Shown piece by piece: positions 4,675 through 22,701 of a stretch of 50,524 nt of DNA (the stretch's first letter is position 1; every line of letters starts with the position of its first letter). The DNA lies in contig VMGJ01000005.1 of assembly GCA_007376485.1 (NCBI GenBank), forward strand, positions 1 to 50,524, in the 5' to 3' direction. Both the position numbers and the translations under genes were made by a program. A model generated the notes under the pieces. That model made no database searches. It was not told the DNA's origin and worked only from the letters and a program-made list of their open reading frames with translations. The stretch is from Parcubacteria group bacterium Licking1014_17. Lineage in GTDB: Bacteria; Patescibacteriota; Minisyncoccia; 2-02-FULL-40-12; IGHO2-01-FULL-4-A.

Positions 4675-5313
4675 TTATTTATTTACGTTATCTACAGTAT
4701 CATAGAGTTTTGCGGGTTTGAAGACTATACGCCGATAACCGGTGAAATTCACCAATAAAGCTCCCGCTGAACCCACAACAGCGGCTATATTCGCCCACGC
4801 TTTAGGGTCTAAGCCCCACAAAGGATTCGCGGAAACCACCAGATACGAAAGCACTATATTAGTGAGCATGCCGCTGAATGTGACGGCTAAAAACTTTATA
4901 AATTCACTTCCCTTTTTTGATGTCTTGCCGGCGTTAAACGCCCAATACTTATTCCAGATATAACTGTTAATTATTGCAACTACGATGCCGCCCGCTCTTA
5001 CGAACGGGAAATAAGCTCCTTTTGCCACGCCGGTGAGTACGATTAAGAGTGTTACGATGCTGTTGTCCATGGCGGCGCTCAAAAATCCCACGGCCACGAA
5101 TTTCGAAAAAGAATAAAAAAATTGCCACCGCCGGGACAGATAACCGCCCAGTATGATACCGGCGGTAAAAAGCACGGGAACCAGAGGCAGTAATATCCAC
5201 ACAGGGAAAATTAGCAATCGCTTAGTGCCCAAATACGACAGCAAAATTGAGAGAAGCAAACCAACAAGCGTCCCTGAAACAAGGGCTAAATAAATATCTT
5301 TTTTCTTAGTCAT
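4675..5313 (-). CDS. GtrA-family membrane protein
   Basis: 212 aa with multiple TM segments and a C-terminal half carrying the GtrA-like pattern (YIWNKYWAF ... FTGYRRIVF). Confidence 0.55.
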   Translation of the reverse strand: MTKKKDIYLALVSGTLVGLLLSILLSYLGTKRLLIFPVWILLPLVPVLFTAGIILGGYLSRRWQFFYSFSKFVAVGFLSAAMDNSIVTLLIVLTGVAKGAYFPFVRAGGIVVAIINSYIWNKYWAFNAGKTSKKGSEFIKFLAVTFSGMLTNIVLSYLVVSANPLWGLDPKAWANIAAVVGSAGALLVNFTGYRRIVFKPAKLYDTVDNVNK

Positions 5314-7802
5314 TGGCTGAAATGGGAGCGAATGTCCTCTTCGACCTGCTCGCGGGGCTTTCCGTATTTAAGTTTGGACAGCTCTCTGATTGATTTGGCG
5401 TTTTCCTCGGGACCGTTTTTCTGGATATCTATCCTGATTTTAAACGGACGCGCCGGTTCACCGTTAATTATTAAACTCGCGTAAGCGTTAAGATTTTCGA
5501 TGTTCGCCAAATCTTCAGGGCCTACGGCGGGCGAAAATCTGGCTTTAAGCGGTACGGAATCGGCGTCCTCGCCGCTGACGCGGAACACTATCATTGAACC
5601 CACATTGCCAAAAATAGAATCGCGCACCTTCTCCGGCAATTGTTTTATAAATTGATGGCCGATTATGAGATCCAGCCTGTATTTGCGCGCTTCCGACAAA
5701 ATCGTTGAGATGCTGTCGGTGACGAAATTTTGGAACTCATCTATGTACAGGTAAAAATCTTTTCTCGACCTTTCATCGGCGATATCCACGCGTGAAAGAG
5801 CGGCAATCAGAAGCTTGCCGACAATGATGAGGCCGAGCAGATAAGCGTTGATGTCGCCGATTCTTCCCTTGGACAGGTTAACCACCAGTATTTTCCCCTG
5901 ATCCATCACTTCCCGGAAATTAATGGCGCTCTTCTGCTGGTTGATAATCGGCCTGAGATAATCATTCGACACGAAAGTATCCACTTTGTTCGTTATATAC
6001 GGAGCGAAATTAGCCAAGCTCTGCTCGCCGGTTGTTTTTGTCGCTTCCATTTCCCAGAACTGTTTGACCATGGGATTTATTTCAACCGCCAGCAATCTAT
6101 TCCTGTATTCTTCGTTGACCATAACCCGGGAAATATCCGCCAGTATCGGCATGCTTTTTTCGACATCCTCCCAGCTCAATTCGCCGCCTCTTCCTTCTTT
6201 GTCCAGCTGGAGCTTGAATTTGTACATATATTCGTAGTAATCCATTATCAGAAGGCAGGCATTTTTGAAATACTTTTCAAACATCGGACCGCCGATTTCT
6301 TTCAGATTATAAAGTTTGTCGATTATAACGAAAAGTTCATTGATGACGAGCGTTTTTTGTTCGGGATGGTTCGGGTCAAATTCGAAAATATTCAAACCTA
6401 GCGGGAAATCAAGTTCGCCGGGATTGAAATAAATTATATCTTCGGCTCTTTCTTTGGGCGTGATCGAAAGAACATAATCGGCAAATTCACCGTGAGGGTC
6501 TATCACGCAAACTCCTTTGCCCTCCTGGACGTCTTGGCGCAGCATCAGTTTCATAATCGTGGTTTTACCGGTGCCGGTTTGCCCGAGAATGTACAAGTGG
6601 CGGCGGCGATCTTCGTCGGTCAGCCGGATTTCCCGCTGTTGGCCGCGGAATTCGTTTACGCCGACCATTATTCCGGTAGCCGGCAGATTCGGCGGCGGTT
6701 CCGTCGGTTTTGCTTTCAGGAATTTTACGCTTGGAGCCGTAGTTGTCGCCAGCGGGAAGTGATACAAGCTCACCAGCTCTTCGGTGGAAAGCGTAAGTTT
6801 TTGTTTTTCATTAAAAAGCCGGAAAGAAAAGTCGTAAATTAATTTATTCAGCGAACCGCTTTCAAGAGTGACAAACTTCAGACTGTTCATCCCCGGCGAA
6901 AAGTACTGGTTTATGGAACCCTGGAAGTCGCTTAATATTTGTTTGACCCGATTCGGGTCCAGCGCCGATACCAGAAATCTCACGTTGACTTCAAAATTTA
7001 CCTTGCCCGATTTCGCGACCAAAGCTTTTATAATTTCATCGTCGGTCGGAGTGATGACTCTGGGCTTTTCCGGTTCCGGCGGCTTATTTGGCTCCGGTTT
7101 TTTCGGTTTCGGAGGATTACTTGCTCTTTGAGTCGCTTCGTCGTATTTGTAGCCGGCTTGCATCTCCCTTGCCACTTTATTGGCGCGGGAAATAAGTTTT
7201 TTATTGCGCGCCGCCCTGATGATAACCTGAAAAGCCGCGCCCTCGCCCTCCATGCTAAGTTTGGACATTGAAGTGAGGATTCCGCTCAAAGGATCGGCTT
7301 CGAGTTTTTCGTAAGTCCGGAAAGGAAGAATCGCTTCTTTTTCGTACGACAAAAAACCGCCGCCGACCGCGCCGGTTTGATTGAAAATATTGTAATCTTT
7401 GGCTTGGATTATTTCAGCCGAAGGATAATACGAGTAAATCTGTTTCTCAATCACATCGGCGCTTTTTCTCGGAACTGAAACATAAAAAAGCATTTCTTCT
7501 CCCACGTTGTGGACGCTTATCTCGAGCGCGAGATAAGGGTCGCCGAATATTAATCTGTTCCAGCCTTTGGATTTTAAGTTGGAAAAACTTGAAAAAAGCT
7601 GTTCGGCGATTCCCAGCAATTCTTTGTCCTGCTTGTGCTGGCCGTCTTTCGGAATTTCACGCGGGACCCTTATCTGCAACAGCGTCATGTTGAGCGCTCT
7701 CTGAACCTGCCCCTTGCTCCGAAAGCCCTGGAACACAACCAAAGCGGCAATGGCTATTGCCAGCAAAATGAAAATCAGTAGAACCGCGATAATTGGACTC
7801 AT
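5310..7802 (-). CDS. Membrane-anchored P-loop NTPase of the TraD/TraG/VirD4 (FtsK/HerA superfamily) coupling-protein type
   Basis: N-terminal TM helix, a Pro/Lys-rich linker (PPKPKKPEPNKPPEPEKP), Walker A ILGQTGTGKTT and Walker B FYLYIDEFQNF. The start overlaps the stop of the downstream gtrA-like gene by 4 nt. Confidence 0.5.
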   Translation of the reverse strand: MSPIIAVLLIFILLAIAIAALVVFQGFRSKGQVQRALNMTLLQIRVPREIPKDGQHKQDKELLGIAEQLFSSFSNLKSKGWNRLIFGDPYLALEISVHNVGEEMLFYVSVPRKSADVIEKQIYSYYPSAEIIQAKDYNIFNQTGAVGGGFLSYEKEAILPFRTYEKLEADPLSGILTSMSKLSMEGEGAAFQVIIRAARNKKLISRANKVAREMQAGYKYDEATQRASNPPKPKKPEPNKPPEPEKPRVITPTDDEIIKALVAKSGKVNFEVNVRFLVSALDPNRVKQILSDFQGSINQYFSPGMNSLKFVTLESGSLNKLIYDFSFRLFNEKQKLTLSTEELVSLYHFPLATTTAPSVKFLKAKPTEPPPNLPATGIMVGVNEFRGQQREIRLTDEDRRRHLYILGQTGTGKTTIMKLMLRQDVQEGKGVCVIDPHGEFADYVLSITPKERAEDIIYFNPGELDFPLGLNIFEFDPNHPEQKTLVINELFVIIDKLYNLKEIGGPMFEKYFKNACLLIMDYYEYMYKFKLQLDKEGRGGELSWEDVEKSMPILADISRVMVNEEYRNRLLAVEINPMVKQFWEMEATKTTGEQSLANFAPYITNKVDTFVSNDYLRPIINQQKSAINFREVMDQGKILVVNLSKGRIGDINAYLLGLIIVGKLLIAALSRVDIADERSRKDFYLYIDEFQNFVTDSISTILSEARKYRLDLIIGHQFIKQLPEKVRDSIFGNVGSMIVFRVSGEDADSVPLKARFSPAVGPEDLANIENLNAYASLIINGEPARPFKIRIDIQKNGPEENAKSIRELSKLKYGKPREQVEEDIRSHFSQ

Positions 7803-9622: not shown

Positions 9623-12532
9623 TTATAGGACGAAATTCACCAGTTTATTTTTGACGAAAATTGTTTTTTTAGGGGGAGTAGGCAGATATTTCTGCACATT
9701 CGGGTCAGCTTTCGCTTTTTCTACGACTTCTTCCTCGCTTGAGTCAAAATCCATTTCGATAACCGCCCGCAATTTTCCGTTAACCTGAACGGGTATTTTT
9801 GCTGTTTTATCTTTAATTAAAGACGGGTCATATTCCGGCCACGGTTCAATATGCACCGATTTTTCGTGTTTCGAAATGTTCCGCCAGATTTCTTCGGTGA
9901 TGAACGGCGCGAAGGGCGCCAGTAGTTTTATAAATGCCTCAAAATCACTCCGCGTAATTTCATTGGCTTTTTCCATCTCATTAAGGAATATCATCAGAGC
10001 GCTGATTGCCGTATTATACCGAAGATTTTCAATATCCTCAGTCACTTTTTTAATTGTTTTGTTAGTTATTACTGGCAAACCACCCCCTCCATCACCGATT
10101 TTTTTATTTGCCGCCGCCCAAACCTTACCGAGAAATCTGGCAATGCCGATAATACTATCATCCCTAAAATCCCCCCCCTGTTCAAACGGCCCAATAAACA
10201 TTAAATACATTCTCAAAACATCCGCGCCGTATTTTTCAATGTATTCGTCGGGATTTACGATATTCCCCTTTGACTTTGACATTTTCGCATCTTCTTTTAT
10301 TAAAAGCCCGTGGGCGCGGAATTTATGGAACGGCTCTTCAAAATCTATCAGTCCCCAATCTTTAAATGCCATTGTCACAAATCTGGTGTAGAACAAATGC
10401 AGAACCGAGTGCTCGGCCCCTCCGATGTACATATCCACCGGCAGCCATTTTTTTGTGAGTTCCGGGTCAAAAGGGATTTGCCCTGAGCTTGTCGAATGGG
10501 CGGAGTGAGTCGAAGGAACCTGTCCTGAGCGAGCGGAGTGAGCCGAAGGATAGCGGAAATAGTACCAAGCCGAATCAAAGAAGTTATCCGAAACATCCGT
10601 CTCGCGTTTAGCCGGTCCCCCGCATTTTGGGCATTTGGTTTCGTAAAATTCTTTAACCGTGGTAAGCGGAGAGGCATCGGTCCCGGTCGGCTTAAAGTCT
10701 TTTACGTAAGGCAAAACAACTGGCAAATCTTCTTCCGGTACCGGCTGCCAACTGCATTTGTCGCAATGAATCATCGGAATCGGCGGTCCCCAATAACGTT
10801 GCCGTGAAATCAGCCAATCGCGCAGGCGGTAAGTGGTTTTAAATTCTCCACCGACCTTTTTGGTTATTTCTTTTGCATCAACAAGCGGTGCGTCGCTGAC
10901 CGGCAAATCAAACTTTTTCGCAAACTCCCTATCTCTTTCATCGTGCGCCGGCACAGCCATAATCGCACCAGTGCCGTAATCTCTCAGGACATAATCAGCA
11001 ATCCAAATCGGAATTTCCTGATTGTTTGCCGGATTAATCGCCTTAACGCCTTTCAATTCAACACCAGTTTTGCCTAGTCCTGAGCCCGTCGAAGGGTCTT
11101 TACCTTCGGTGATTCTTTCTTCGTTTGATTTGTTTTTTGCCCGTTCAATGTATTTCTGCACCTCTTCCCAATTCTCTATTTTCGATTCAAGATTTTCGAT
11201 TTCTTCATATTCTGGTGCCAACACCATGTAAGTTGTCCCAAACAATGTATCCGGGCGGGTCGTGAAAACGCGAATAGAATCGATGCAGTGGTGGAGCACT
11301 TCTGGCTCGGTATTACCGCTGAAATGAGGTTTACTGGCATTGTAATCAAAAAGTTCTCCACCGATCAACTTATACAGAGAATATGTGTTGTCTTGCGGTA
11401 CAGTATCATCAGATAAATCCCTGAGAATAGAAATTTCTCCAGCGTTGCACTTAATTTTTTCAGGATTAAATTTCCAATCGAATGTGTGCAGCGGGAAGTT
11501 TTCATCTATGAATCGATTTTCTGAATAACACCCGACCAGAACTGTTTTTCGAACTGGGGTTGAAAGTTTTTCAAGAATTTTAAGTACTACAACACCTCCA
11601 AGACTATGGCCCACAATGATCGTATTTCCATCAAAAGGTACATTTTTTAATACCGCCTCAACTTGATCCCTAACAATCGGGTCTTTTGTGTTCGGAAGTT
11701 CAGGAACATAAACCCTGGCCCCTCTTTTTTCAAGTTCTTTTTTTAGCCATGGAAAAAAATTGTTTTCTGGAGAACCGGTATAACCGTGTAGCAAAACATA
11801 TGATGGAGCAATAGCCCCAGCAATTTCAAAATCAATCCCCGCTCCTTCAGATTTTCCTATCCAGTTTCTCTGGGCGATTTTAACCCGCTCAGACCAATTA
11901 ATCCAGTCCAGATTTTTCAGAAGTTTTTCGGCATAATCCGTAATTTTGAAAAACCACTGCTCCAGTTCTTTCCTTATAACTTCTGTTCCGCATCTTTCAC
12001 ACTTGCCGGCTATTACCTGCTCGTCAGCTAGCACTGTTTTGCACGACGGGCACCAGTTGACCGGCGCTTTTTTGCGGTAGGCTAAACCATGCTTGAACAT
12101 TTGGACAAAAATCCACTGGGTCCATTTGTAATATTCGGGGTCGTAGGTTTCCAGTTTTTCGTCCCAGGCGAAACCATTGCCTATTGCTTTCACCTGCTCG
12201 TAATATCTTTTTTCGCTTTTTTTCAGCAAATCAACCGGATGCGTGCCGATTTTAATGGCGTAATTTTCGGAATGGATGCCGAATCCGTCCAGCCCGAACG
12301 GCTCAAAAACATCATAACCCTGCATTCTCTTGAATCGTCCGTAAATGTCTGAACCCGTGAAGGCGTACATATTGCCGACATGCAGCCCCTCCGCCGAAGG
12401 ATACGGAAACATCATCAGATTATAAAACTTGCCCTTGCCTTTTGGGTGCGCCAAATCCGGCTGGTATATTTTCTCCTCCAGCCACTTCTTGAGCCACTTC
12501 TTTTCGGTTTTTTGATGGTCGTAGGATTTCAT
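9623..12532 (-). CDS. leuS: Leucyl-tRNA synthetase with an inserted alpha/beta serine-hydrolase domain
   Basis: PYPSAEGLHVGN (HIGH variant), the CP1 hallmarks VFTTRPDTLFGTTYMVLAPE and GTGAIMAVPAHDERD, and KMSKSKGN. The likely start is the ATG at 12532 (MKSYDHQK), which removes the overlap with the upstream gene. The inserted domain is at 11276..11812. Confidence 0.92.
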   Translation of the reverse strand: MKSYDHQKTEKKWLKKWLEEKIYQPDLAHPKGKGKFYNLMMFPYPSAEGLHVGNMYAFTGSDIYGRFKRMQGYDVFEPFGLDGFGIHSENYAIKIGTHPVDLLKKSEKRYYEQVKAIGNGFAWDEKLETYDPEYYKWTQWIFVQMFKHGLAYRKKAPVNWCPSCKTVLADEQVIAGKCERCGTEVIRKELEQWFFKITDYAEKLLKNLDWINWSERVKIAQRNWIGKSEGAGIDFEIAGAIAPSYVLLHGYTGSPENNFFPWLKKELEKRGARVYVPELPNTKDPIVRDQVEAVLKNVPFDGNTIIVGHSLGGVVVLKILEKLSTPVRKTVLVGCYSENRFIDENFPLHTFDWKFNPEKIKCNAGEISILRDLSDDTVPQDNTYSLYKLIGGELFDYNASKPHFSGNTEPEVLHHCIDSIRVFTTRPDTLFGTTYMVLAPEYEEIENLESKIENWEEVQKYIERAKNKSNEERITEGKDPSTGSGLGKTGVELKGVKAINPANNQEIPIWIADYVLRDYGTGAIMAVPAHDERDREFAKKFDLPVSDAPLVDAKEITKKVGGEFKTTYRLRDWLISRQRYWGPPIPMIHCDKCSWQPVPEEDLPVVLPYVKDFKPTGTDASPLTTVKEFYETKCPKCGGPAKRETDVSDNFFDSAWYYFRYPSAHSARSGQVPSTHSAHSTSSGQIPFDPELTKKWLPVDMYIGGAEHSVLHLFYTRFVTMAFKDWGLIDFEEPFHKFRAHGLLIKEDAKMSKSKGNIVNPDEYIEKYGADVLRMYLMFIGPFEQGGDFRDDSIIGIARFLGKVWAAANKKIGDGGGGLPVITNKTIKKVTEDIENLRYNTAISALMIFLNEMEKANEITRSDFEAFIKLLAPFAPFITEEIWRNISKHEKSVHIEPWPEYDPSLIKDKTAKIPVQVNGKLRAVIEMDFDSSEEEVVEKAKADPNVQKYLPTPPKKTIFVKNKLVNFVL

Positions 12533-12534
12533 TT

Positions 12535-13311
12535 TCAAATTTTCTCGTTCGGTAGCACGTCCCACATGAAATCAAACCATTGTTTATAGTCGCGAGCCAG
12601 AGTTTTATCCTTCAAAATGAAGATAGTTATATCCTGGTCAAGGGCATTAACATTAATTCCGGAATATATTGCTACATATTCGCCAAATATATCTATAGAT
12701 GAATCATTGGAATATTTTTGCGGCAAAAACTTATAGGGTTTGCCAACTGCCTTGATTACTTCGGGATGTTCTTTTATTTGCCAGTCGTAAATCAAATGGC
12801 TTTTGATTTTTTTCTTTACTACTTCCTGCCCGGCTCTGACGGCAAAAGTTTTTATTCTCGGGTCAAACCATGTTCCCTTGCTGTTAATGCCATAGATATC
12901 TTCGCTGGTTTCCAGAATCAGGTTGATGTAATTTTTTAATCCCCCAACGCCTTTAAAAATATAAACCGACTGCGAGGCGCTTTTTTCAGAAAATTTACTT
13001 TTCAAACTGGGTAGGATATCTTCAACGTCTTTAATGCGGTCATTTGCTAATTCCTGGAGCTTGTCTGGGTGGGATGGCGCGAAAGTTAACACCTTTTTCG
13101 GCAATACCTGATAAACCAATCCCTTGGCGATCAGGCACTGTAAAGCGTCGTAGGCATTGCGCCTGTGTACGCCCGATTTATTCGTGATTGCTTCAATGGA
13201 ACTTTCCTTCAGTTCCACCAAAGCCAAATAAATCTTCGCCTCGCTGGGCGTGAGCAAGTTACTGGAAACCAAAACCTCCGTTGCCAATAATTCATTGTAA
13301 GCCATAAGCAA
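12535..13311 (-). CDS. TrmB-family transcriptional regulator
   Basis: N-terminal winged HTH (LTPSEAKIYLALVELKESSIEAITNKSGVHRRNAYDALQCLIAKGLV) and a C-terminal domain of TrmB length. Confidence 0.65.
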   Translation of the reverse strand: MLMAYNELLATEVLVSSNLLTPSEAKIYLALVELKESSIEAITNKSGVHRRNAYDALQCLIAKGLVYQVLPKKVLTFAPSHPDKLQELANDRIKDVEDILPSLKSKFSEKSASQSVYIFKGVGGLKNYINLILETSEDIYGINSKGTWFDPRIKTFAVRAGQEVVKKKIKSHLIYDWQIKEHPEVIKAVGKPYKFLPQKYSNDSSIDIFGEYVAIYSGINVNALDQDITIFILKDKTLARDYKQWFDFMWDVLPNEKI

Positions 13312-15794: not shown

Positions 15795-17297
15795 TTATTG
15801 GAGTTTCGGGAACAGCGGCTTGATTTCTGAAATAATAATTTTATCCTCTTTTGCGCCTACGCCTGGTTCAAATCCGAAAGTTTTGTAGATTTTTTCGAAT
15901 GTTTCCGGGAGAAAAGGTTTCAGCAATTTTGCAGATTCTAAAATTATCGTCGTGGAGGTGGTAATTGTTTTGAGAAATTTTTCGGGGCTTTCTTTGGCAT
16001 CAACCCACGGCTTTTTTCCGTCAATATAAACATTGGCGTAATCCAGAAGTTCCCAAATATGCGACAGCGCCGTATGAAGCTGAAATTCTTCCACCGCTTT
16101 TTCATATTTCTGTTTCGCGGCTTCAATCCGTTTTTCCGCCTCCTTGTCCAGAAATTCCGGATTAAATATCAGCTCCCCCTCCAGATTTGTTTCAATAAGT
16201 TTCGCTACCCGGCTGACCAGATTGCCGAGATTATTCGCCAGGTCGCCGTTATAACGCGCCTCCAATCTTTCATAAGAAAAATCCCCATCCTTGCCGGAAG
16301 GTATCTCACGGAGCAAAAAATAACGTGTCGGGTCAACGCCGTATTTTTTGACGACGCTAAACGGGTCAATCACATTACCGATAGATTTAGATATTTTTTG
16401 GCCGTTGATTGTAAAATATCCGTGAACGATTATCTCGCTTGGCAAAGGCAATCCGGCAGAAAGAAGCATTATGGGCCAGTAGACGGTATGAAATCTGGCA
16501 ATACCCTTACCGACCAAATGAATTTTGCGTTTGTTGTTTACCCACCAATCCTGAAATCTTTTTTCATCGTTCGCGTAGCCGATTACGTTTATGTAATTGG
16601 AAAGCGCGTCAAACCAAACGTACTCAACCTGCGAGGAGTCGCCCGGCACGGGAATGCCCCAGCCGTGAGCCCTTGCCTGGCTTCGGGAAATGCTCAAATC
16701 TTCCAGTCCCTTGTTTATGAATTCCAGCGTTTCGTTTTTACGCGAAGCAGGCGTGATTTTAAGCTCATCATTTTCAATCAGTTTTTTCAGCTTATCCTGG
16801 TATTTGCCCAGCTTGAGAAAATAATTTTCCTCTTTGACTACTTCCGGCTTTGTTTGGTGTTCCGGGCACAATCCGTTTACCAAATCTTTTTCCGTATAAA
16901 ACGACTCACAGCCGACGCAATAAAGCCCCTCATATTTTTTCTTATAAATATCTCCAGCTTTGTCGCAAGCATTCCAGAGTTTTTGGGCGCCGGCGATATG
17001 GCGTTCCTCGGTGGTACGAATGAAATCGTCATTGGATATGTCCAAAACTTTGGTTAACTTTTCAAATATGTCCGAATTCTCTTTTACGTGGACTTTCACG
17101 TCAATCCCTCTTTTTTCAGCGGCTAAAACATTTTTCAGCGAGTTTTCGTCGGTGCCGGTAAGAAAAAAAACGTCAAATCCTTTTTCGCGGTAATAGCGCG
17201 CCAGAACATCGCCCTGGACAAATTCCAAAGCATGGCCGATATGCGGGGCGGCGTTGACGTAGGGTATGGAAGTAGAAATGAATAATTTTTCAGGCAT
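15795..17297 (-). CDS. metG: Methionyl-tRNA synthetase
   Basis: The likely start is MPEKLFISTSIPYVNAAPHIGH (HIGH motif). Also present are the Zn knuckle CVGCESF...CPEH and KISKSIGN (KMSKS). Confidence 0.92.
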   Translation of the reverse strand: MPEKLFISTSIPYVNAAPHIGHALEFVQGDVLARYYREKGFDVFFLTGTDENSLKNVLAAEKRGIDVKVHVKENSDIFEKLTKVLDISNDDFIRTTEERHIAGAQKLWNACDKAGDIYKKKYEGLYCVGCESFYTEKDLVNGLCPEHQTKPEVVKEENYFLKLGKYQDKLKKLIENDELKITPASRKNETLEFINKGLEDLSISRSQARAHGWGIPVPGDSSQVEYVWFDALSNYINVIGYANDEKRFQDWWVNNKRKIHLVGKGIARFHTVYWPIMLLSAGLPLPSEIIVHGYFTINGQKISKSIGNVIDPFSVVKKYGVDPTRYFLLREIPSGKDGDFSYERLEARYNGDLANNLGNLVSRVAKLIETNLEGELIFNPEFLDKEAEKRIEAAKQKYEKAVEEFQLHTALSHIWELLDYANVYIDGKKPWVDAKESPEKFLKTITTSTTIILESAKLLKPFLPETFEKIYKTFGFEPGVGAKEDKIIISEIKPLFPKLQ

Positions 17298-17391
17298 AGA
17301 TACAAAATACCGCAGAAATGGCGAAAAAGCCAATCTTTAGGCTTTGTTTGTATTTTTGCCCGCCAGCCATTAAGATAGTAAGATACACCCC

Positions 17392-19239
17392 ATGGAAAAA
17401 CACTCTCTACATATTAAGAATCCGGAACTTCAAACTTCATCCGAAGTTGAGCGGGCGGTGAAGCGCAAAGAACGGCACACCGGCGAGAAAATACCCAACA
17501 ATCCAAGGGAACGAATTGAGGCGTATATGGGCCGCCTGGGTAATATTTTCCTCAATCCGGATAAACGGAAGCATGAACGTAATATGGAAATGTTCCGTGA
17601 TAAGATATACGACGCTTTAATAATCAAGCCAGAACAAGTGCCCGAGTCATATTTTGAACTTCAAAAACGGGCGGCCAGGGAAAGAGGTCAAACCGTAGAA
17701 GAAATACCGCAAAATATCAGAGATCAAATGATTGAGACCGTAATTGCCGACCAGAAGCACTCCTTGGATCAATGGGTTGATTATCTAACATCGGATGATG
17801 TCGCGTATCCGGCGTGGTTTAAATATTTTGTATGGAGAAACGTTATTAAGCTTAGCCAGTTTGATAAGACGCTTGGAAAATTCAAAACAAGAACAGAATC
17901 CACGGTCGCTCCCTATCCGGATATATATCGTGCACCGCTCGCGAAAATCCTTGATATATATGAAAGAGCCGTTGAGGACAAGACTAAGCTGAAAGACCCT
18001 ACCGTTCAAGCGGATTTTTCCAAGCGGTTCTCAAAACTCTACGCGGAACTTATATCAGAATCTTTGGCTGTTAAAATTGAAAGCAGAGAGCAAATCGGGG
18101 GGAAGTGGGTCAAATACGACAAAGGCAACCAAGAAGAAGCCGATAAACTTTTTGATTCCGTGCAAGCCAAAGGCACCGGCTGGTGTATAGAAGGCCAAAC
18201 CACTGCCCGGAATTATATAAAACAGGGGGACTTTTATGTTTACTACACATACGACAAAGACAATAATCCCATTCAACCCCGCATCGCCATTCAAATGAAC
18301 GGTTCGCAGATTGGCCAGATTCGGGGGATTCAGGAGCATCAAGAATTAGAACCGATTATGTCCGAAGTTTTGGAAGATAAACTGGAGGAATTCGGTCCCG
18401 AAGCTGACAGTTACAAAAAGAAAAATGCCGATATGAAAAAAATGACTGAAATTGAAAAGAAAACCAAGTCGGACAAGATACTCGCCAAAGACGACCTTAC
18501 ATTCCTCTATGAGATTGACTCTCCCATCAAAGGTTTTGGCTACGAAAAAGACCCCCGCATCGCCGAATTGAAAAAAAACAGAAACCCTGAAGAAGATATA
18601 CTCGTGATCTTTGACTGTGCCCGCGAACAAATCGCGCATACTTCGCGAGACATTAATGAAAATACAAAAGTGTTTGTGGGCAAACTTGAGCCAGGCATTT
18701 TTGACGCCATCCAGCAATACAACATCGAACACGTCTATACCTCCTTCCCTGAAGGCGAGATAAGAAAAGAGACCATCACAATCGGCGGTAAAACATGGCA
18801 AGAACTTGAAAAAGAAATGAGAGCAAGGAATATTAAAATTGGCGACTACGCTCTCGACATGATGAAAAGTAAAGAATTCAAAACTCTTGAGCAAGCCGAG
18901 GTTGGCGATTATGTTCGCCTCAAAGTTGATAGTCTTGGCTTACAGGGTACTCCTACCACTGATCAGATTTATGCGAGGGCAAATGAATTGGGCTTAGATC
19001 TTTGTCCTACCGAGGTTGGCCCTCATTACAGATTGCAATACATGAATCAGCCGTTGGGCGAATATTTCTGTATTGCAATGAAACAGATAGCGGCTCGCGA
19101 CGGCTACCCGTACGTCTTCAGCGTCTACCGCGGTGTGGACGGCCTGTGGCTCAGCTACGATTGGGCCGAGCCGGCCTACCAGTGGCGTCAGGGCAACGGG
19201 TTTGTCTTCCGTCTTCGCAAGAAAAACTTAAAATCTTAG
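17392..19239 (+). CDS. DGR target (variable) protein: large uncharacterised N-terminal region plus a C-terminal VR-bearing domain
   Basis: 615 aa with no obvious signal peptide or TM segment. The last ~45 codons form the VR (DGYPYVFSVYRGVDGLWLSYDWAEPAYQWRQGNGFVFRLR). Confidence 0.85.
   Translation: MEKHSLHIKNPELQTSSEVERAVKRKERHTGEKIPNNPRERIEAYMGRLGNIFLNPDKRKHERNMEMFRDKIYDALIIKPEQVPESYFELQKRAARERGQTVEEIPQNIRDQMIETVIADQKHSLDQWVDYLTSDDVAYPAWFKYFVWRNVIKLSQFDKTLGKFKTRTESTVAPYPDIYRAPLAKILDIYERAVEDKTKLKDPTVQADFSKRFSKLYAELISESLAVKIESREQIGGKWVKYDKGNQEEADKLFDSVQAKGTGWCIEGQTTARNYIKQGDFYVYYTYDKDNNPIQPRIAIQMNGSQIGQIRGIQEHQELEPIMSEVLEDKLEEFGPEADSYKKKNADMKKMTEIEKKTKSDKILAKDDLTFLYEIDSPIKGFGYEKDPRIAELKKNRNPEEDILVIFDCAREQIAHTSRDINENTKVFVGKLEPGIFDAIQQYNIEHVYTSFPEGEIRKETITIGGKTWQELEKEMRARNIKIGDYALDMMKSKEFKTLEQAEVGDYVRLKVDSLGLQGTPTTDQIYARANELGLDLCPTEVGPHYRLQYMNQPLGEYFCIAMKQIAARDGYPYVFSVYRGVDGLWLSYDWAEPAYQWRQGNGFVFRLRKKNLKS
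19086..19220 (+). repeat. DGR variable region (VR)
   Basis: Gapless alignment to 19553..19687 (offset +467). There are 19 internal substitutions, all at TR adenines. The invariant 3' block is gtttgtcttccgtcttcg. Confidence 0.9.
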
Positions 19240-19552
19240 TTGCTTTTCCGTTCTTGCTTGCGCTTTAAATCTTTTTCTCTTTGATACTTTGGTTTCTCCG
19301 GCACAAATTTTTTGCTATGCTGGTTTTGGATTGGTTGTATCGAACGGGTGCGCCTTTTCGAAACCATTCTGGCGAATGCAGGTTGAGAGTCCGCCCGGCT
19401 ACGGCTTGGCGGAGAGGACTTGCTTTTCGTCATTCAAAAAAGAAACACTTGGTATGATGCACTGGCGGATTTTCGATCCCAAGTAATATACAGCCTGAAA
19501 TCTTCCGCCAGAGGCGGATTATGCAGGCAGTGCCACGGATGGTGCTCCATAC

Positions 19553-19687
19553 AATAACGGATCGCGACGGCAACCCGAACGTCTTCAACGTCAACCGCAA
19601 TGAGGACGGCCTGTGGCTCAACAACGATTGGGCCAAGCCGGACAACCAGTGGAATCAGGACAACGAGTTTGTCTTCCGTCTTCGAAA
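19553..19687 (+). repeat. DGR template region (TR)
   Basis: This is the A-rich cognate of the VR, with AAC/AAT codons where the VR varies (NPN, NVN, NN, DN, NQDN). It is non-coding in context; the 19521..19916 ORF is a by-product. Confidence 0.9.
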
Positions 19688-19704
19688 TTATTTCTTTTCC
19701 GCAC

Positions 19705-20028
19705 TCATAGGGTGCGGTTTTTCTTCCCCGGGTTGTCCAGGCTACCCTTCCAGCCACCGAACATTTTGCCGATTTCTTCCAGCTTTATGGCGACTTCTTC
19801 ATAGTGTTGGTTGGATATTAATTTACCGCTCCATGCGACTGAAATTAAAAAAGTTAGTGTATCGCGAACGAAAATACACTCCGATATTTTTAAGACTTTC
19901 TGTTCCTTTGGGGTAAAATATGCGGTATATGTTAGTTCTAAGAGGTCAAGAAATTTATTTTCAATTCGTGCGCCGATTGTACGGCGGGCGCCCTTGGCTA
20001 TATGCGGAATAATACTCATCCACAACAA
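19705..20028 (-). CDS. avd: Avd-like DGR accessory variability determinant (four-helix-bundle type)
   Basis: About 105 aa, basic. The pattern IPHIAKGARRTIGARIENKFLDLL...LISVAW...AIKLEEIGKMFGGW parallels Bordetella phage Avd (…IAEVGRILGSW). It starts at TTG 20028 or ATG 20019. It is on the opposite strand to the TR and RT. Confidence 0.7.
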   Translation of the reverse strand: MLWMSIIPHIAKGARRTIGARIENKFLDLLELTYTAYFTPKEQKVLKISECIFVRDTLTFLISVAWSGKLISNQHYEEVAIKLEEIGKMFGGWKGSLDNPGKKNRTL

Positions 20029-20069
20029 ATATCCCTCTTTAACTCGCTGAAGAATCGAGGTTTGATTAC

Positions 20070-20090
20070 GAGAGAGAGAGAGAGAGAGAG
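20070..20090. repeat. (GA)10 dinucleotide microsatellite
   Basis: gagagagagagagagagagag lies in the 109-nt divergent spacer between the avd and RT starts. Confidence 0.95.
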
Positions 20091-20137
20091 TAAGGGGAAC
20101 TATTCATAAGTACCAGCATATCATATCGCTAGAAAAT

Positions 20138-21079
20138 TTGCTTGAATCTTGGCGAGAATTTTTTAGGGCTAAAAAGAGGCGGGAAGATGTGGCCGCCTTC
20201 TCTTTTGCGTTTATGGATAATATTCTTTCTTTACACCATGAGCTTGTCGAGAAAACATATAAGCACGGCGGCTACCACACATTTAAAATCAACGACCCAA
20301 AGCCGAGAGAAATTCACAAAGCAAGTGTCCGTGATCGCCTTGTACACCATGCCGTTTTTAGAATTTTATCCCCTTATTTTGAGCGACAATTTATTTTCGA
20401 TTCATATTCCTCACGCTTAGGTAAGGGCACCCACAAGGCCATAAATCGCCTACGTAGCTTCATCGGAAAAGTTTCCAAAAATCACACAAAAACAGCATGG
20501 ATCTTAAAATGCGACATTAAAAAATTTTTTGCAAGCATTGATCATGGCATACTTAAGACAATTTTGGCTGAATATATTTGCGACAAAAATATATTATGGT
20601 TATTGGCGCAAATCATTGATAGTTTCCATACCAAAGAAAAGCCCGGGACTGGATTACCACTTGGGAATCTCACGAGTCAATTGTTCGTGAACGTATATAT
20701 GAACATATTTGATCAATTCGCGAAACGAAAACTGAGAGCACGGCACTATATCCGTTTTGCCGACGATTTTGTGATTGTGCACAGAAATAAAAAACACCTA
20801 GAAAATTTTATTACTAAAATATCTGAATTTTTAGGGAATCGTTTGAAACTCTCGCCTCATCCAAATAAGGTTTCCATAAGGACCATTACTTCAGGAGTTG
20901 ATTTTCTTGGCTGGGTACATTTTCCAAAATATCGGGTATTACGGACATCTACAAAACGGCGTATATTTAAGCGGCTCAAGAAAAATCGGAATAATGCCAG
21001 TGTGCAATCATACCTTGGACTAATGCGGCACGGGAATACTTATAAATTAAGGAAGAAAACGCAAATCACTAATAGCTAA
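20138..21079 (+). CDS. DGR reverse transcriptase
   Basis: 313 aa with PREIHKASVRDRLVHHA (motifs 1-2), DIKKFFASIDH (motif 3), GLPLGNLTSQLFVNVYMN (the DGR-typical [I/L]GxxxSQ motif 4) and IRFADDFVIV (catalytic xADD box). TTG start. Confidence 0.9.
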   Translation: MLESWREFFRAKKRREDVAAFSFAFMDNILSLHHELVEKTYKHGGYHTFKINDPKPREIHKASVRDRLVHHAVFRILSPYFERQFIFDSYSSRLGKGTHKAINRLRSFIGKVSKNHTKTAWILKCDIKKFFASIDHGILKTILAEYICDKNILWLLAQIIDSFHTKEKPGTGLPLGNLTSQLFVNVYMNIFDQFAKRKLRARHYIRFADDFVIVHRNKKHLENFITKISEFLGNRLKLSPHPNKVSIRTITSGVDFLGWVHFPKYRVLRTSTKRRIFKRLKKNRNNASVQSYLGLMRHGNTYKLRKKTQITNS

Positions 21080-21150: not shown

Positions 21151-22701
21151 ATGGCTGAAAATAAAACCGCCTTTGCCGATAGCTCCGGCGAGTCAAGGCA
21201 AAAAAATCAAATGATCCGTCCCCCCATTGTGGTTATATTGGGCCATGTTGACCATGGCAAAACCACGATTTTGGATGCAATCAGAAAAACCAAAGTAGCG
21301 GAAAAAGAAGCCGGCGGGATTACCCAGCACGTGGGAGCGTATCAGGCGGAGTGCCGCGGAAAGAAAATTACTTTTCTGGATACACCCGGGCATGAAGCGT
21401 TCAGCGCCATCAGGTCGCGGGGGGCGAAAGTGGCGGACGTTGCCGTTCTGGTTGTCGCCGCCGATGAAGGCGTGAAGCCGCAGACAAAGGAAGCGATTGA
21501 AATTATCAAAGAAGCGAAAATCCCGGTTGTGGTTACCATTAACAAAATAGACAAAGAAGGCGCCAATCCGGCGCAGGCACGCCAGCAATTAGCGGAACAG
21601 GAGGTTTTTGTGGAGGACTATGGAGGCAAAGTGCCGGTGGTTGAGATTTCAGCCAGAAACGGCGAAGGAATAGACCGCCTCCTTGAAATGATTCTGCTCG
21701 TCGCCGAAATGGAAGAATTGCCGCTGAAGCTGGGTATGCCGGCGGAGGGCTATGTGATTGAATCGCATTTAGATAACCGCCGCGGCGTCGTGGCGACGCT
21801 GATAATCCTTCAGGGTGAATTGAATGTTTCGGATTGGATTGTCGCCGGCAACGCCATCGCCAGAGCGAAATTAATTGAAGATTTTACCGGCAAAGCGATA
21901 AAATCCACAAATCCGTCACAGCCGTGCGTTGTGCTTGGCTGGGAATCAGCGCCGGATATCGGGCAAAAGTTTCTTGTTGTTGCCAGCCGGGACGAAGCGG
22001 CAAAAATACTGGAATCCCAGAAAGGAAACGGGCACACGGCTTTATTTATTGAAGATGCTCAGCCGACAGGCAAGAAAATCGCCAACCTCGTGGTTAAAAG
22101 CGACGTCCAAAGTTCGTTAGAAGCCATAGACAAATCTTTAAGAACCATAAAATCCGAAGAAGTGGCTTACAAAGTTGTCGACTATGGCGTCGGGAAAATC
22201 ACGGATAACGACATCCGAAACGCTAGGTCAATGGGCGCGGCGATAATCGGCTTTCATGTGCCGGTTGAAAAATCAACACTGCAGCTGGCGGAACGCGAAA
22301 AAGTGAAAATCCAGACCTTTGATATTATTTATGAATTAATTGAAGCGGTGCGGGATGTAATGTCCGATTTGCTTGAGCCGGAAATCAAACGGGAAGATAT
22401 CGGCAAAATGAAAGTTTTGGCGACTTTCGGCGGAACTCCCAAATCGCAAATCGTCGGCGGGAAAATAATCCAAGGAAAGATTGCGCGCGGAGCGCAAGTA
22501 TCAGCCATAAGAAACGGCCAGCTTCTCGTTCAGGGCAAAGTCGGACAGCTGCAAACGGGCAAACAGGATGTCGCGGAGGCGGCGGAAGGGTTGGAAGCCG
22601 GCATCCGGTTTGACATCCAGAACGGCGCGGATACTCCCCTCGTCAAGGAAGGAGACCTGCTGGAAATATTTATCGAAGAAAAAATTAAGAGGAAAGTTTA
22701 G
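21151..22701 (+). CDS. infB: Translation initiation factor IF-2 (short form)
   Basis: [24 protein letters not shown] and NKIDK, with C-terminal beta-barrel domains. Only ~20 aa precede the G domain. Confidence 0.92.

Follow-up and report, generated by a model that had tools for sequence, protein, structure and literature searches.

The 50,524-nt stretch of Parcubacteria group bacterium Licking1014_17 analysed here (contig VMGJ01000005.1; referred to as the window, with all coordinates given as window positions) contains a diversity-generating retroelement (DGR). Taken as a whole and including its mechanism, the element is very probably best explained as a chromosomal DGR of the Patescibacteria (also called the candidate phyla radiation, CPR), arranged as a target gene ending in a variable region (VR), a DGR RNA that includes the template region (TR), an inverted avd (accessory variability determinant) gene and a reverse transcriptase (RT) gene. 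The cassette itself is one more CPR DGR among thousands known, so that the finding is correct but ordinary. Two of its features are firmly supported across related loci. The first is a structured RNA that immediately precedes the TR, is conserved and is supported as a structure. The second is a simple-sequence tract at the junction of avd and the RT gene, which is conserved as a feature and polymorphic in length within populations of relatives. We regard as evenly poised the joint proposal that, across the Patescibacteria DGR clade, the tract gates Avd (and in this subfamily also the RT) and that the DGR RNA is free-standing, ended by a terminator and permuted towards its 5' side.

The relatives used for comparison come from an RT-based scan of species-representative genomes, in which at least 557 relatives were confirmed among the matches listed. 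The best 80 of these at least 557 RT relatives, with 58–66% identity to the window RT, served as comparison loci; nearly all are labelled Patescibacteria, and a few carry another phylum label or none. In all, about 100 relatives entered the comparisons. The number of loci differs by test, with 74 avd–RT gaps, 62 species-level loci that have the ATG discussed below, and 52 loci in the RNA alignment.

Template and variable regions

The initial annotation had proposed a complete DGR, and the parts expected of one are present: a TR/VR pair that differs only at adenines, a VR at the 3' end of its gene, a DGR-like RT and an Avd. The VR (19086–19220) and the TR (19553–19687), both on the plus strand, align without gaps at an offset of +467 as had been reported, and the TR begins one base after the 3' strand of helix P3 of the RNA described below. 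There are 20 differences between the two, all opposite TR adenines, and the positions listed originally (19 substitutions and a 20th at 19218) were reproduced exactly. With 39 A among the 135 bases of the TR, mismatches placed at random would hit an A in all 20 cases with a probability of 1.8e-13. An independent repeat finder returned the same pair (19087–19220 and 19554–19687, 86% identity). The VR of the window is thus rewritten at TR-adenine positions.

The adenines of the TR are placed at codon positions 1 or 2 in 36 of 39 cases, and nine of its ten AAC/AAT codons are recoded in the VR. BLAST and an A-masked pattern scan found no second VR or remote target in the window. Among the 80 loci, A-specific TR/VR pairs accompany the cassette in at least 50 Patescibacteria loci, and all pairs found have A-specific mismatches. 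In more than 50 loci a plus-strand TR ends 20–45 nt from the avd stop codon, with the VR located 250–430 nt upstream of the TR.

VR/TR homology ends in an A-free 18-nt block, and the flanks diverge past 19220 and 19687. This block (19200–19217 in the VR) had been described as invariant and similar to an initiation-of-mutagenic-homing (IMH) element. The identity holds, but because the TR has no A in this block its invariance is expected and provides no independent evidence.

A stem-loop had also been suggested just after the VR, by likeness to other DGRs; GC-rich inverted repeats occur downstream of the VR in only 34% of DGRs (survey PMC5758913). In the window the predicted hairpin has an energy of −6.8 kcal/mol and a z score of −1.14, and 30 of 200 shuffles fold equally well, which is not above chance. 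Strong hairpins follow the VR in half of the relatives, with varying positions and a terminator-like form. A post-VR hairpin was therefore rejected as a conserved DGR element, given that the window hairpin is not significant and those of relatives vary in position.

The region that separates the stop codon of the target gene from the putative promoter of the DGR RNA (19226–19300), together with the equivalent region of 52 loci, is enriched 13–16-fold in CTTTG, CTTAG and CTTGG. The usual spacing of these motifs is 8 nt, seen in 41 cases, or 7 nt, seen in 14, and they make up an array of short 8-nt repeats, of which the window copy is degenerate. The array may be a protein-binding or target-recognition element.

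Reverse transcriptase, Avd and gene order

The RT gene (20102–21079, plus strand, with the frame open from 20066) matches RVT_1 (PF00078) and, with 360 bits, phrog_1423. Its best solved relative is the DGR RT of Bordetella phage BPP-1 (bRT; 8ub7_A, E 1.9e-40, 142 bits), in an alignment that begins at residue 17 of the translation from 20066. The motifs noted earlier are borne out, with LGNLTSQ aligning to IGSLTSQ of bRT and FADD to YMDD; a PKPR fingers arginine and the residue equivalent to R74 of bRT are also present. Structures of group II intron and retron-type RTs reach 72 bits or less against the window RT, and by these match scores the RT falls with DGR RTs and not with either of those groups.

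The gene between TR and RT, annotated initially as Avd-like, is real and lies on the minus strand. It spans 19705–20107, with a conserved body at 19705–20064, and matches PF22296 (1.5e-10, 42 bits, with a cutoff of 40 bits), phrog_3206 ('Avd protein of DGR', 2.9e-13) and NF033474 (2e-12, below the model cutoff). The resulting layout has the TR at 19553–19687 on the plus strand, avd at 19705–20028 and beyond on the minus strand, and the RT from about 20102 on the plus strand. The same order of TR, inverted avd and RT is seen in every one of the 80 loci in which avd is detectable. It corresponds to architecture B3, TR-(avd)-RT, which accounts for 90% of CPR DGRs (Wu et al. 2018, PMC5758913), and CPR DGRs make up DGR clade 2 (Roux et al. 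2021, PMC8144416).

These data also bear on a reading in which an ordinary duplication or gene-conversion repeat happens to lie beside an unrelated group II intron, retron or defence RT. The best NCBIfam match of the RT is indeed a group II intron maturase model, at 145 bits and far under its 300-bit cutoff, and no DGR-RT model is among its NCBIfam matches. The A-only mismatches, with the probability given above, argue against such a reading, as do the bit score of bRT, which is double that of every group II or retron-type structure, the adjacent Avd and the lack of any intron RNA or retron msr/msd match in Rfam. Together they refute it and leave it a negligible probability.

The published CPR DGRs (PMC5758913, PMC8144416) share with the window the gene order, the inverted avd, a Patescibacteria host, a target without recognised domains and A-specific mutagenesis, and at the level of the cassette the window shows no difference from them. 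Term searches of these two papers, wider for PMC5758913 than for PMC8144416, gave no mention of a junction tract, a head-to-head overlap or a 5' structured RNA, which are properties of the clade. The BPP-1 DGR (mtd-avd-TR-brt) is alike in RT homology, the LGxxxSQ motif and the Avd partner. In contrast, it resides in a phage, whereas the window DGR has a cellular host and an avd that is inverted and transcribed separately; the window also has no significant cruciform or hairpin after the VR, and its target is not Mtd-like.

A structured RNA 5' of the template region

The structured 5' domain of the DGR RNA is ~225 nt long (19328–19552, plus strand) and is defined by covariation over 52 loci, on which the comparative values in this section are based. 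RNAalifold gives 38 pairs, 34 of them with compensatory changes. Pairing is possible in 93% of pairing cells, compared with 40–48% when partners are slid by 1–3 columns, and the covariation score is 0.806 against 0.21 or less in controls, with none of 500 shuffles reaching the observed values. The single-sequence fold of 19328–19724 has a z score of −3.09.

The domain consists of five helices on the plus strand. P1 (19340–19348 with 19353–19361) has a UGCG loop and P2 (19390–19398 with 19405–19413) a UACG-type loop. They are followed by an A-rich linker and by P3 (19452–19463 with 19541–19552), a 12-bp helix that closes a junction with P4 and P5. P4 (19467–19470 with 19476–19479) is followed by an A-rich single strand, and P5 (19493–19497 with 19524–19528) also lies inside the P3 junction. 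In P3, ten of the 12 base pairs show compensatory changes and 95.7% of cells pair. TR/VR homology sets in at a median of 2.5 nt (range −2 to 11) after P3.

The A-rich linker contains a primer-like strand, AAAAGAAA (19438–19445, plus strand), which is predicted to pair with UUUCUUUU, the strand just 3' of the TR (19691–19698, plus strand), in a proposed template:primer duplex. With RNAduplex, the linker of a locus and its own TR 3' flank reach −6.6 kcal/mol, against −4.6 kcal/mol for mismatched partners (permutation p≤5e-5), with duplexes of 7–11 bp. Directly downstream, the terminator scan identified an intrinsic-terminator-like hairpin (19699–19722, plus strand), CCGCAC...GUGCGG followed by UUUUU, that overlaps the avd stop codon at 19705–19707. 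GC-rich hairpins with U runs likewise follow the TR in related loci.

At the other end, an extended −10 promoter-like element, TGc TATGCT (19313–19321, plus strand), is the putative promoter of the DGR RNA. The motif TTnTGnTAnAnT is kept at the promoter position of the VR–TR spacer in the alignments. The element is not listed by a sigma-70 scan that requires a −35 match. The DGR RNA would be a discrete transcript of ~395 nt, running from the extended −10 near 19313–19321 to the terminator at 19699–19722. An RNA this compact could be used for reconstitution or engineering.

A covariance model (R1) built on the 3' half of the RNA was searched against 884 kb and gave exactly one match per cassette, including ~30 loci outside its training set. 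Its strand is that of the RT in every case, including loci with an inverted target gene. In the window the single match is at 19420–19557 (90.2 bits, E 1.8e-15). With one match per cassette, the model could help to call the boundaries of DGRs and TRs more accurately in CPR genomes. No match for the leader RNA was found in Rfam 15, even at E≤10.

P1 and P2 resemble each other, in that each has a variable stem of 5–6 bp capped by a GG(U/C)-UACG-type loop unit that is conserved, with the consensus CGGYUAMGGCUU. The pair may have arisen by duplication of a binding site for a protein such as the Avd pentamer.

Comparison with the BPP-1 ribonucleoprotein

The role of the RNA structure we infer from the RNA of the BPP-1 phage ribonucleoprotein. 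That RNA begins with the avd strand of a stop duplex, followed by the TR, an Avd-binding stem-loop and a primer strand that ends in the priming A56 (bioRxiv 10.1101/2023.10.23.563531). After A56 come two nucleotides, the strand of the stop duplex contributed by the 'spacer' (Sp) RNA and a short UNCG stem-loop, and the 3' part holds A-minor adenosines, a thumb ring and a bRT-binding stem-loop (bioRxiv 10.1101/2023.10.23.563531). The window RNA begins with P1 and P2, the strand that pairs with the TR 3' flank, ACUUG, the 5' strand of P3 and P4. It continues with the A-rich strand, P5, the 3' strand of P3, the TR, the paired flank and the terminal hairpin.

When the ends are joined, the cyclic orders of the two RNAs agree and only the positions of the ends differ. 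Both have a ~12-bp duplex abutting the 5' end of the TR, with a short stem-loop and adenosines following on the other strand, as well as a template:primer-type duplex at the 3' end of the TR and UNCG-capped stem-loops. They differ in the side of the TR on which the module lies: in BPP-1 the Sp module follows the TR on its 3' side and precedes the RT gene, whereas the window module is 5' of the TR. After the window TR only the terminator hairpin precedes the antisense avd, and the RNA ends ~35 nt past the TR.

Because the cyclic orders agree, the CPR RNA is proposed to be a circular permutation of the phage DGR RNA, in which P3 would correspond to the stop duplex and 19438–19445:19691–19698 to the template:primer duplex. 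Since the module is 5' of the TR, it would be a permuted variant and not the same RNA family as the phage RNA; Rfam has no family for either the phage Sp or the CPR leader RNA. In its survey of other DGRs, the phage study took in no more than 40 nt on the 5' side of the TR and 100 nt on the 3' side (bioRxiv 10.1101/2023.10.23.563531), a span that would miss a 5' module.

In the proposed mechanism the 5' domain does the job of the BPP-1 Sp RNA. Pairing of 19438–19445 with 19691–19698 would position the priming adenosine, and the RT–Avd complex would copy the TR into cDNA, misincorporating opposite A, until it stops at the 12-bp P3. The cDNA would then replace the VR (retrohoming), with up to ~20 codons of the C-terminal domain of the 615-aa target protein being recoded. 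The priming role of the leader is assigned by analogy with the phage RNA only, and this weighs against the proposal.

An alternative is that the leader RNA acts as a cis-regulatory element (a riboswitch or attenuator) or stabilises the TR transcript, and is not a counterpart of Sp. The prime and stop roles of the module are argued from anatomy and covariation and not from biochemistry, the module and the phage Sp flank the TR on opposite sides, and P1 and P2 fit no assigned role, all of which would be compatible with regulation in cis. However, the order of elements matches Sp 47–81, from the strand that pairs with the TR 3' flank through a few unpaired nucleotides, the strand of the 12-bp duplex and a short stem-loop to the A-rich strand. 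Across 52 loci the P3 partner strand abuts the 5' boundary of the TR, which in the phage is the place of the avd strand of the stop duplex, and the RNA is linked to avd–RT and not to the target gene. A cis-regulatory leader is thus considered unlikely, and the permuted counterpart of the phage RNA is preferred. A permuted RNA would show, as an experiment done by nature, which elements of the RNA cannot be spared and in what ways they can be connected, and would test the phage ribonucleoprotein model.

A simple-sequence tract at the avd/RT junction

A (GA)10G simple-sequence tract (20070–20090) lies where the 5' ends of avd and the RT gene meet, between the two and, with the starts proposed below, inside both. 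With tracts defined as G≥8 or (GA)≥5, they are present in 69 of 74 avd–RT gaps, at a density of 11.4 per kb compared with 0.013 per kb elsewhere in the loci (~860-fold). They comprise poly-G of 7–12 nt and GA of 10–37 nt, with one TC and one GT tract. That the type of repeat varies among loci points to selection for mutability and not for a sequence.

Tract length differs between contigs of single populations whose flanks are identical. In the Microgenomates GW2011_GWC1_38_12 lineage it is 15 nt in six contigs and 17 nt in three, and in a JGI sample series G11 and G14 tracts were seen twice. A further such pair, L038 and L065, differs by G9 against G12.

Many related contigs (at L082–L086, L024 and L021) end at or near the avd/RT tract. 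Breakage of short-read assemblies at the tract means that surveys of CPR DGRs may systematically lose or truncate cassettes.

The sole other long G/C or GA/TC tract in the window is a C8 run at 10171–10178. It lies inside a 980-aa minus-strand open reading frame (ORF; 9623–12565), which makes this ORF a possible second phase-variable gene.

Start codons and a proposed switch

The tract coincides with the region in which the starts of both genes have to be sought. Avd homology (phrog_3206) starts at codon 20064–20062, two codons from the tract and 12 upstream of TTG 20028, which is the first canonical in-frame avd start; there is none between the tract and the Avd homology. For the RT, the start had been placed at TTG 20138, which does not stand, as homology to DGR RTs begins 8–10 codons upstream (by 20114 for bRT) and this TTG, the only canonical in-frame start, is inside a conserved N-terminal motif. 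Candidate RT starts are the non-canonical ATT 20102, preceded by AAGGGG, or, after addition of 2 nt, ATG 20002 or TTG 20062.

Conservation on the opposite strand gives a better candidate for Avd. The N-terminal His codon of the RT is CAT in 62 of 62 loci, compared with a CAT:CAC ratio of 565:378 elsewhere in the RT genes (p 7e-14), which points to the antisense ATG (20107–20105) as the Avd start. The tract would then lie within the Avd reading frame. In relatives with an in-frame tract, gene calls give a 132–136-aa Avd that begins at that ATG and crosses a poly-Pro or (Ser-Leu)n stretch before it reaches the conserved helix, and in all three loci that lack a tract Avd is in frame with the antisense ATG. 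In the assembled window this ATG is out of frame with avd (distance 79 nt, remainder 1). The subfamily of the window has a similar arrangement for the RT, in which the plus-strand ATG 20002 is the antisense of an Avd His codon and opens a tract-spanning RT ORF in relatives. Since either start lies antisense to a codon that the opposite gene reads in frame, the two ORFs share one condition for being in frame, namely a distance between the triplets that is a multiple of 3. In the window the distance from 20002 to 20105 is 103, so that both genes are out of frame, and one additional GA unit or the loss of two would restore both.

The best-supported reading of these predicted frames is that the tract would act as an ON/OFF contingency switch. 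The divergent avd and RT genes would overlap head to head across the (GA)n tract with their 5' coding ends, Avd starting at the ATG antisense to the conserved His codon of the RT (20107–20105) and the RT, in this subfamily, being able to start at ATG 20002, antisense to the Avd His codon. The tract would gain or lose units by strand slippage, and with each such change the mutagenesis machinery could pass from ON to OFF or back. The window copy as assembled looks switched off; both genes would be OFF, and one more GA unit or two fewer would turn both ON.

Simple-sequence repeat (SSR) contingency loci bring about phase variation by slipped-strand mispairing; examples are poly-G tracts in Neisseria and Campylobacter genes and, in Haemophilus influenzae, TA repeats in the promoters of the divergent hifA and hifB genes. 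The DGR tract is like these loci in being a long run of mono- or dinucleotide repeats located 5' in a gene, with length polymorphism (in relatives) and consequences for the frame. It is unlike them in being common to two divergent, overlapping genes, in controlling (on the proposed reading) a mutagenesis machine and not a surface structure, and in its CPR host. If true, gating of Avd and RT by the tract would amount to a 'mutator of the mutator' of a simple kind, suited to organisms with very few regulators, and would explain the patchy appearance of DGR activity across natural populations. A literature search, outside which Paul et al. 2017 (the main CPR DGR paper) lay, returned no paper linking DGRs to simple-sequence repeats or phase variation and no description of a permuted DGR RNA.

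For the window itself, a point against the reading as a whole is that in the assembled state both avd and the RT gene lack a canonical in-frame start ahead of the conserved N-terminus. Several observations weigh against the switch. Of the 62 species-level loci, ten have Avd in frame and 26 and 26 have it out of frame, which is fewer in frame than the expected third (P 0.002); this low share fits a state that is mostly OFF, but also a different start or recoding at the RNA level. In ~30 loci the RT has its own Shine–Dalgarno (SD) sequence and ATG (MKIQL.H) on the RT side of the tract, so the RT there is not tract-dependent and only Avd would be gated. Two other populations show no variation in tract length among 9–10 contigs, apart from a 2-nt indel beside the tract. 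Homopolymer lengths in short-read assemblies are also error-prone, and the tracts of two loci, L083 and L085, look like artefacts.

Some of these observations could be accounted for if the tract is not a switch at the level of DNA. It would instead allow transcriptional slippage or ribosomal frameshifting, or be an element of a shared 5' untranslated region or promoter. In the slippage form, a +1 shift on the poly-C proline codons or a −2 shift on (UC)n would give a constitutive low level of Avd. Poly-C and (UC)n permit tRNA re-pairing after slippage, which is counted in favour of slippage or frameshifting. Out-of-frame states dominate (52 of 62 loci), the loci with an SD and ATG right of the tract place it upstream of the RT coding sequence, and the divergent start regions of avd and RT are only ~60–100 nt apart, all of which suits these alternatives. 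On the other side, the equal size of the two out-of-frame classes favours no single direction of recoding, GA tracts of 10–37 nt do not fit a fixed promoter spacer, tract length differs at the DNA level within populations with identical flanks, and the CAT/ATG conservation puts the tract inside the Avd reading frame. A single +1 programmed frameshift was rejected as the sole explanation, both out-of-frame classes being equally frequent, and a role as promoter spacer was judged unlikely from the range of GA tract lengths. A tract that does not switch at the DNA level is overall possible but doubtful, and the contingency switch is retained as the preferred reading.

The out-of-frame state of the window could also mean that the cassette is a silenced or decaying relic, with VR differences that record past activity. 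In favour of this are the position of TTG 20138 inside a conserved RT motif, the 12 codons of Avd homology upstream of the first canonical start and the fact that both upstream ATGs are out of frame. Nonetheless, the RT (~325 codons) and avd ORFs are otherwise intact, with catalytic and signature motifs kept, and the frame defect sits exactly in the tract, where it is reversible by one unit. Most relatives are out of frame too, alongside in-frame variants in the same populations, and the RNA domain is fully conserved. A relic is accordingly given a low probability, and a cassette held OFF by its tract is favoured over it.

Target protein

The target gene (17392–19239, plus strand) is listed as a 615-aa ORF. 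The initial assignment of the VR to its last ~45 codons is confirmed, with the VR at the C-terminal end. The protein has an N-terminal part of ~390 aa without a recognisable family and a C-terminal part of ~220 aa that forms a compact domain ending in the VR. No family match was found in Pfam, NCBIfam, PHROGs, or PDB sequence and profile searches, and the only Pfam entries at E≤10, KorB_C and NESP55, were judged to be noise. The protein has more than 3,600 homologues of ~613 aa and ~60% identity across Patescibacteria, all hypothetical and none with a Pfam domain. Targets of other related loci share only the C-terminal ~150 residues with that of the window.

In AlphaFold2 models the full-length target has a mean pLDDT of 78.6 and the C-terminal domain alone 95.2. 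The top Foldseek matches of this domain in the PDB are carbohydrate recognition domains (CRDs) of C-type lectins (mincle, MCL, DCIR and BDCA2). These matches are weak (E 0.12–1.8, TM 0.41–0.45), which counts against the assignment, and a C-type-lectin-like fold of the modelled C-terminal domain is plausible. Foldseek searches with the whole protein gave nothing significant, and BFVD gave nothing.

The 90%-identity cluster of the window target in the protein collection has a single member from one contig, so that its population is represented by one sample. In homologous 90%-identity target clusters, hypervariable columns are concentrated in the last ~45 residues; one such cluster has 22 variable columns among its final 54 and as many as six alleles in seven sequences. 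This indicates that the target family, as represented by these homologous clusters and not by the window copy itself, is diversified in nature.

One homologue of 616 aa (P0073, at L097–L103) is encoded in the interval from efp to mnmA, and the 3.5 kb around it contain neither an RT nor an avd gene nor a TR, so that the family exists also away from cassettes. It could be either a remote target or a non-diversified paralogue.

Arrangement of the cassette in related loci

In the window the cassette is located between metG (15795–17333, minus strand) and infB (21151–22701, plus strand), as had been noted from the start. This synteny is absent in relatives, and the insertion site of the cassette is therefore not conserved.

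One locus, L074, contains two identical units of leader and TR (2209–2481 and 5315–5587) and two VRs (1857–1995 and 4963–5101). In two related populations, represented by L081 (254–1597) and L114–L123 (~5066–6575), a large serine recombinase with Resolvase, Recombinase and Zn_ribbon_recom domains adjoins the cassette, whose target gene has the opposite orientation with respect to avd–RT. The recombinase ORF calls differ among near-identical contigs of these populations. Recombinase-associated cassettes of this type may be invertible or mobile.

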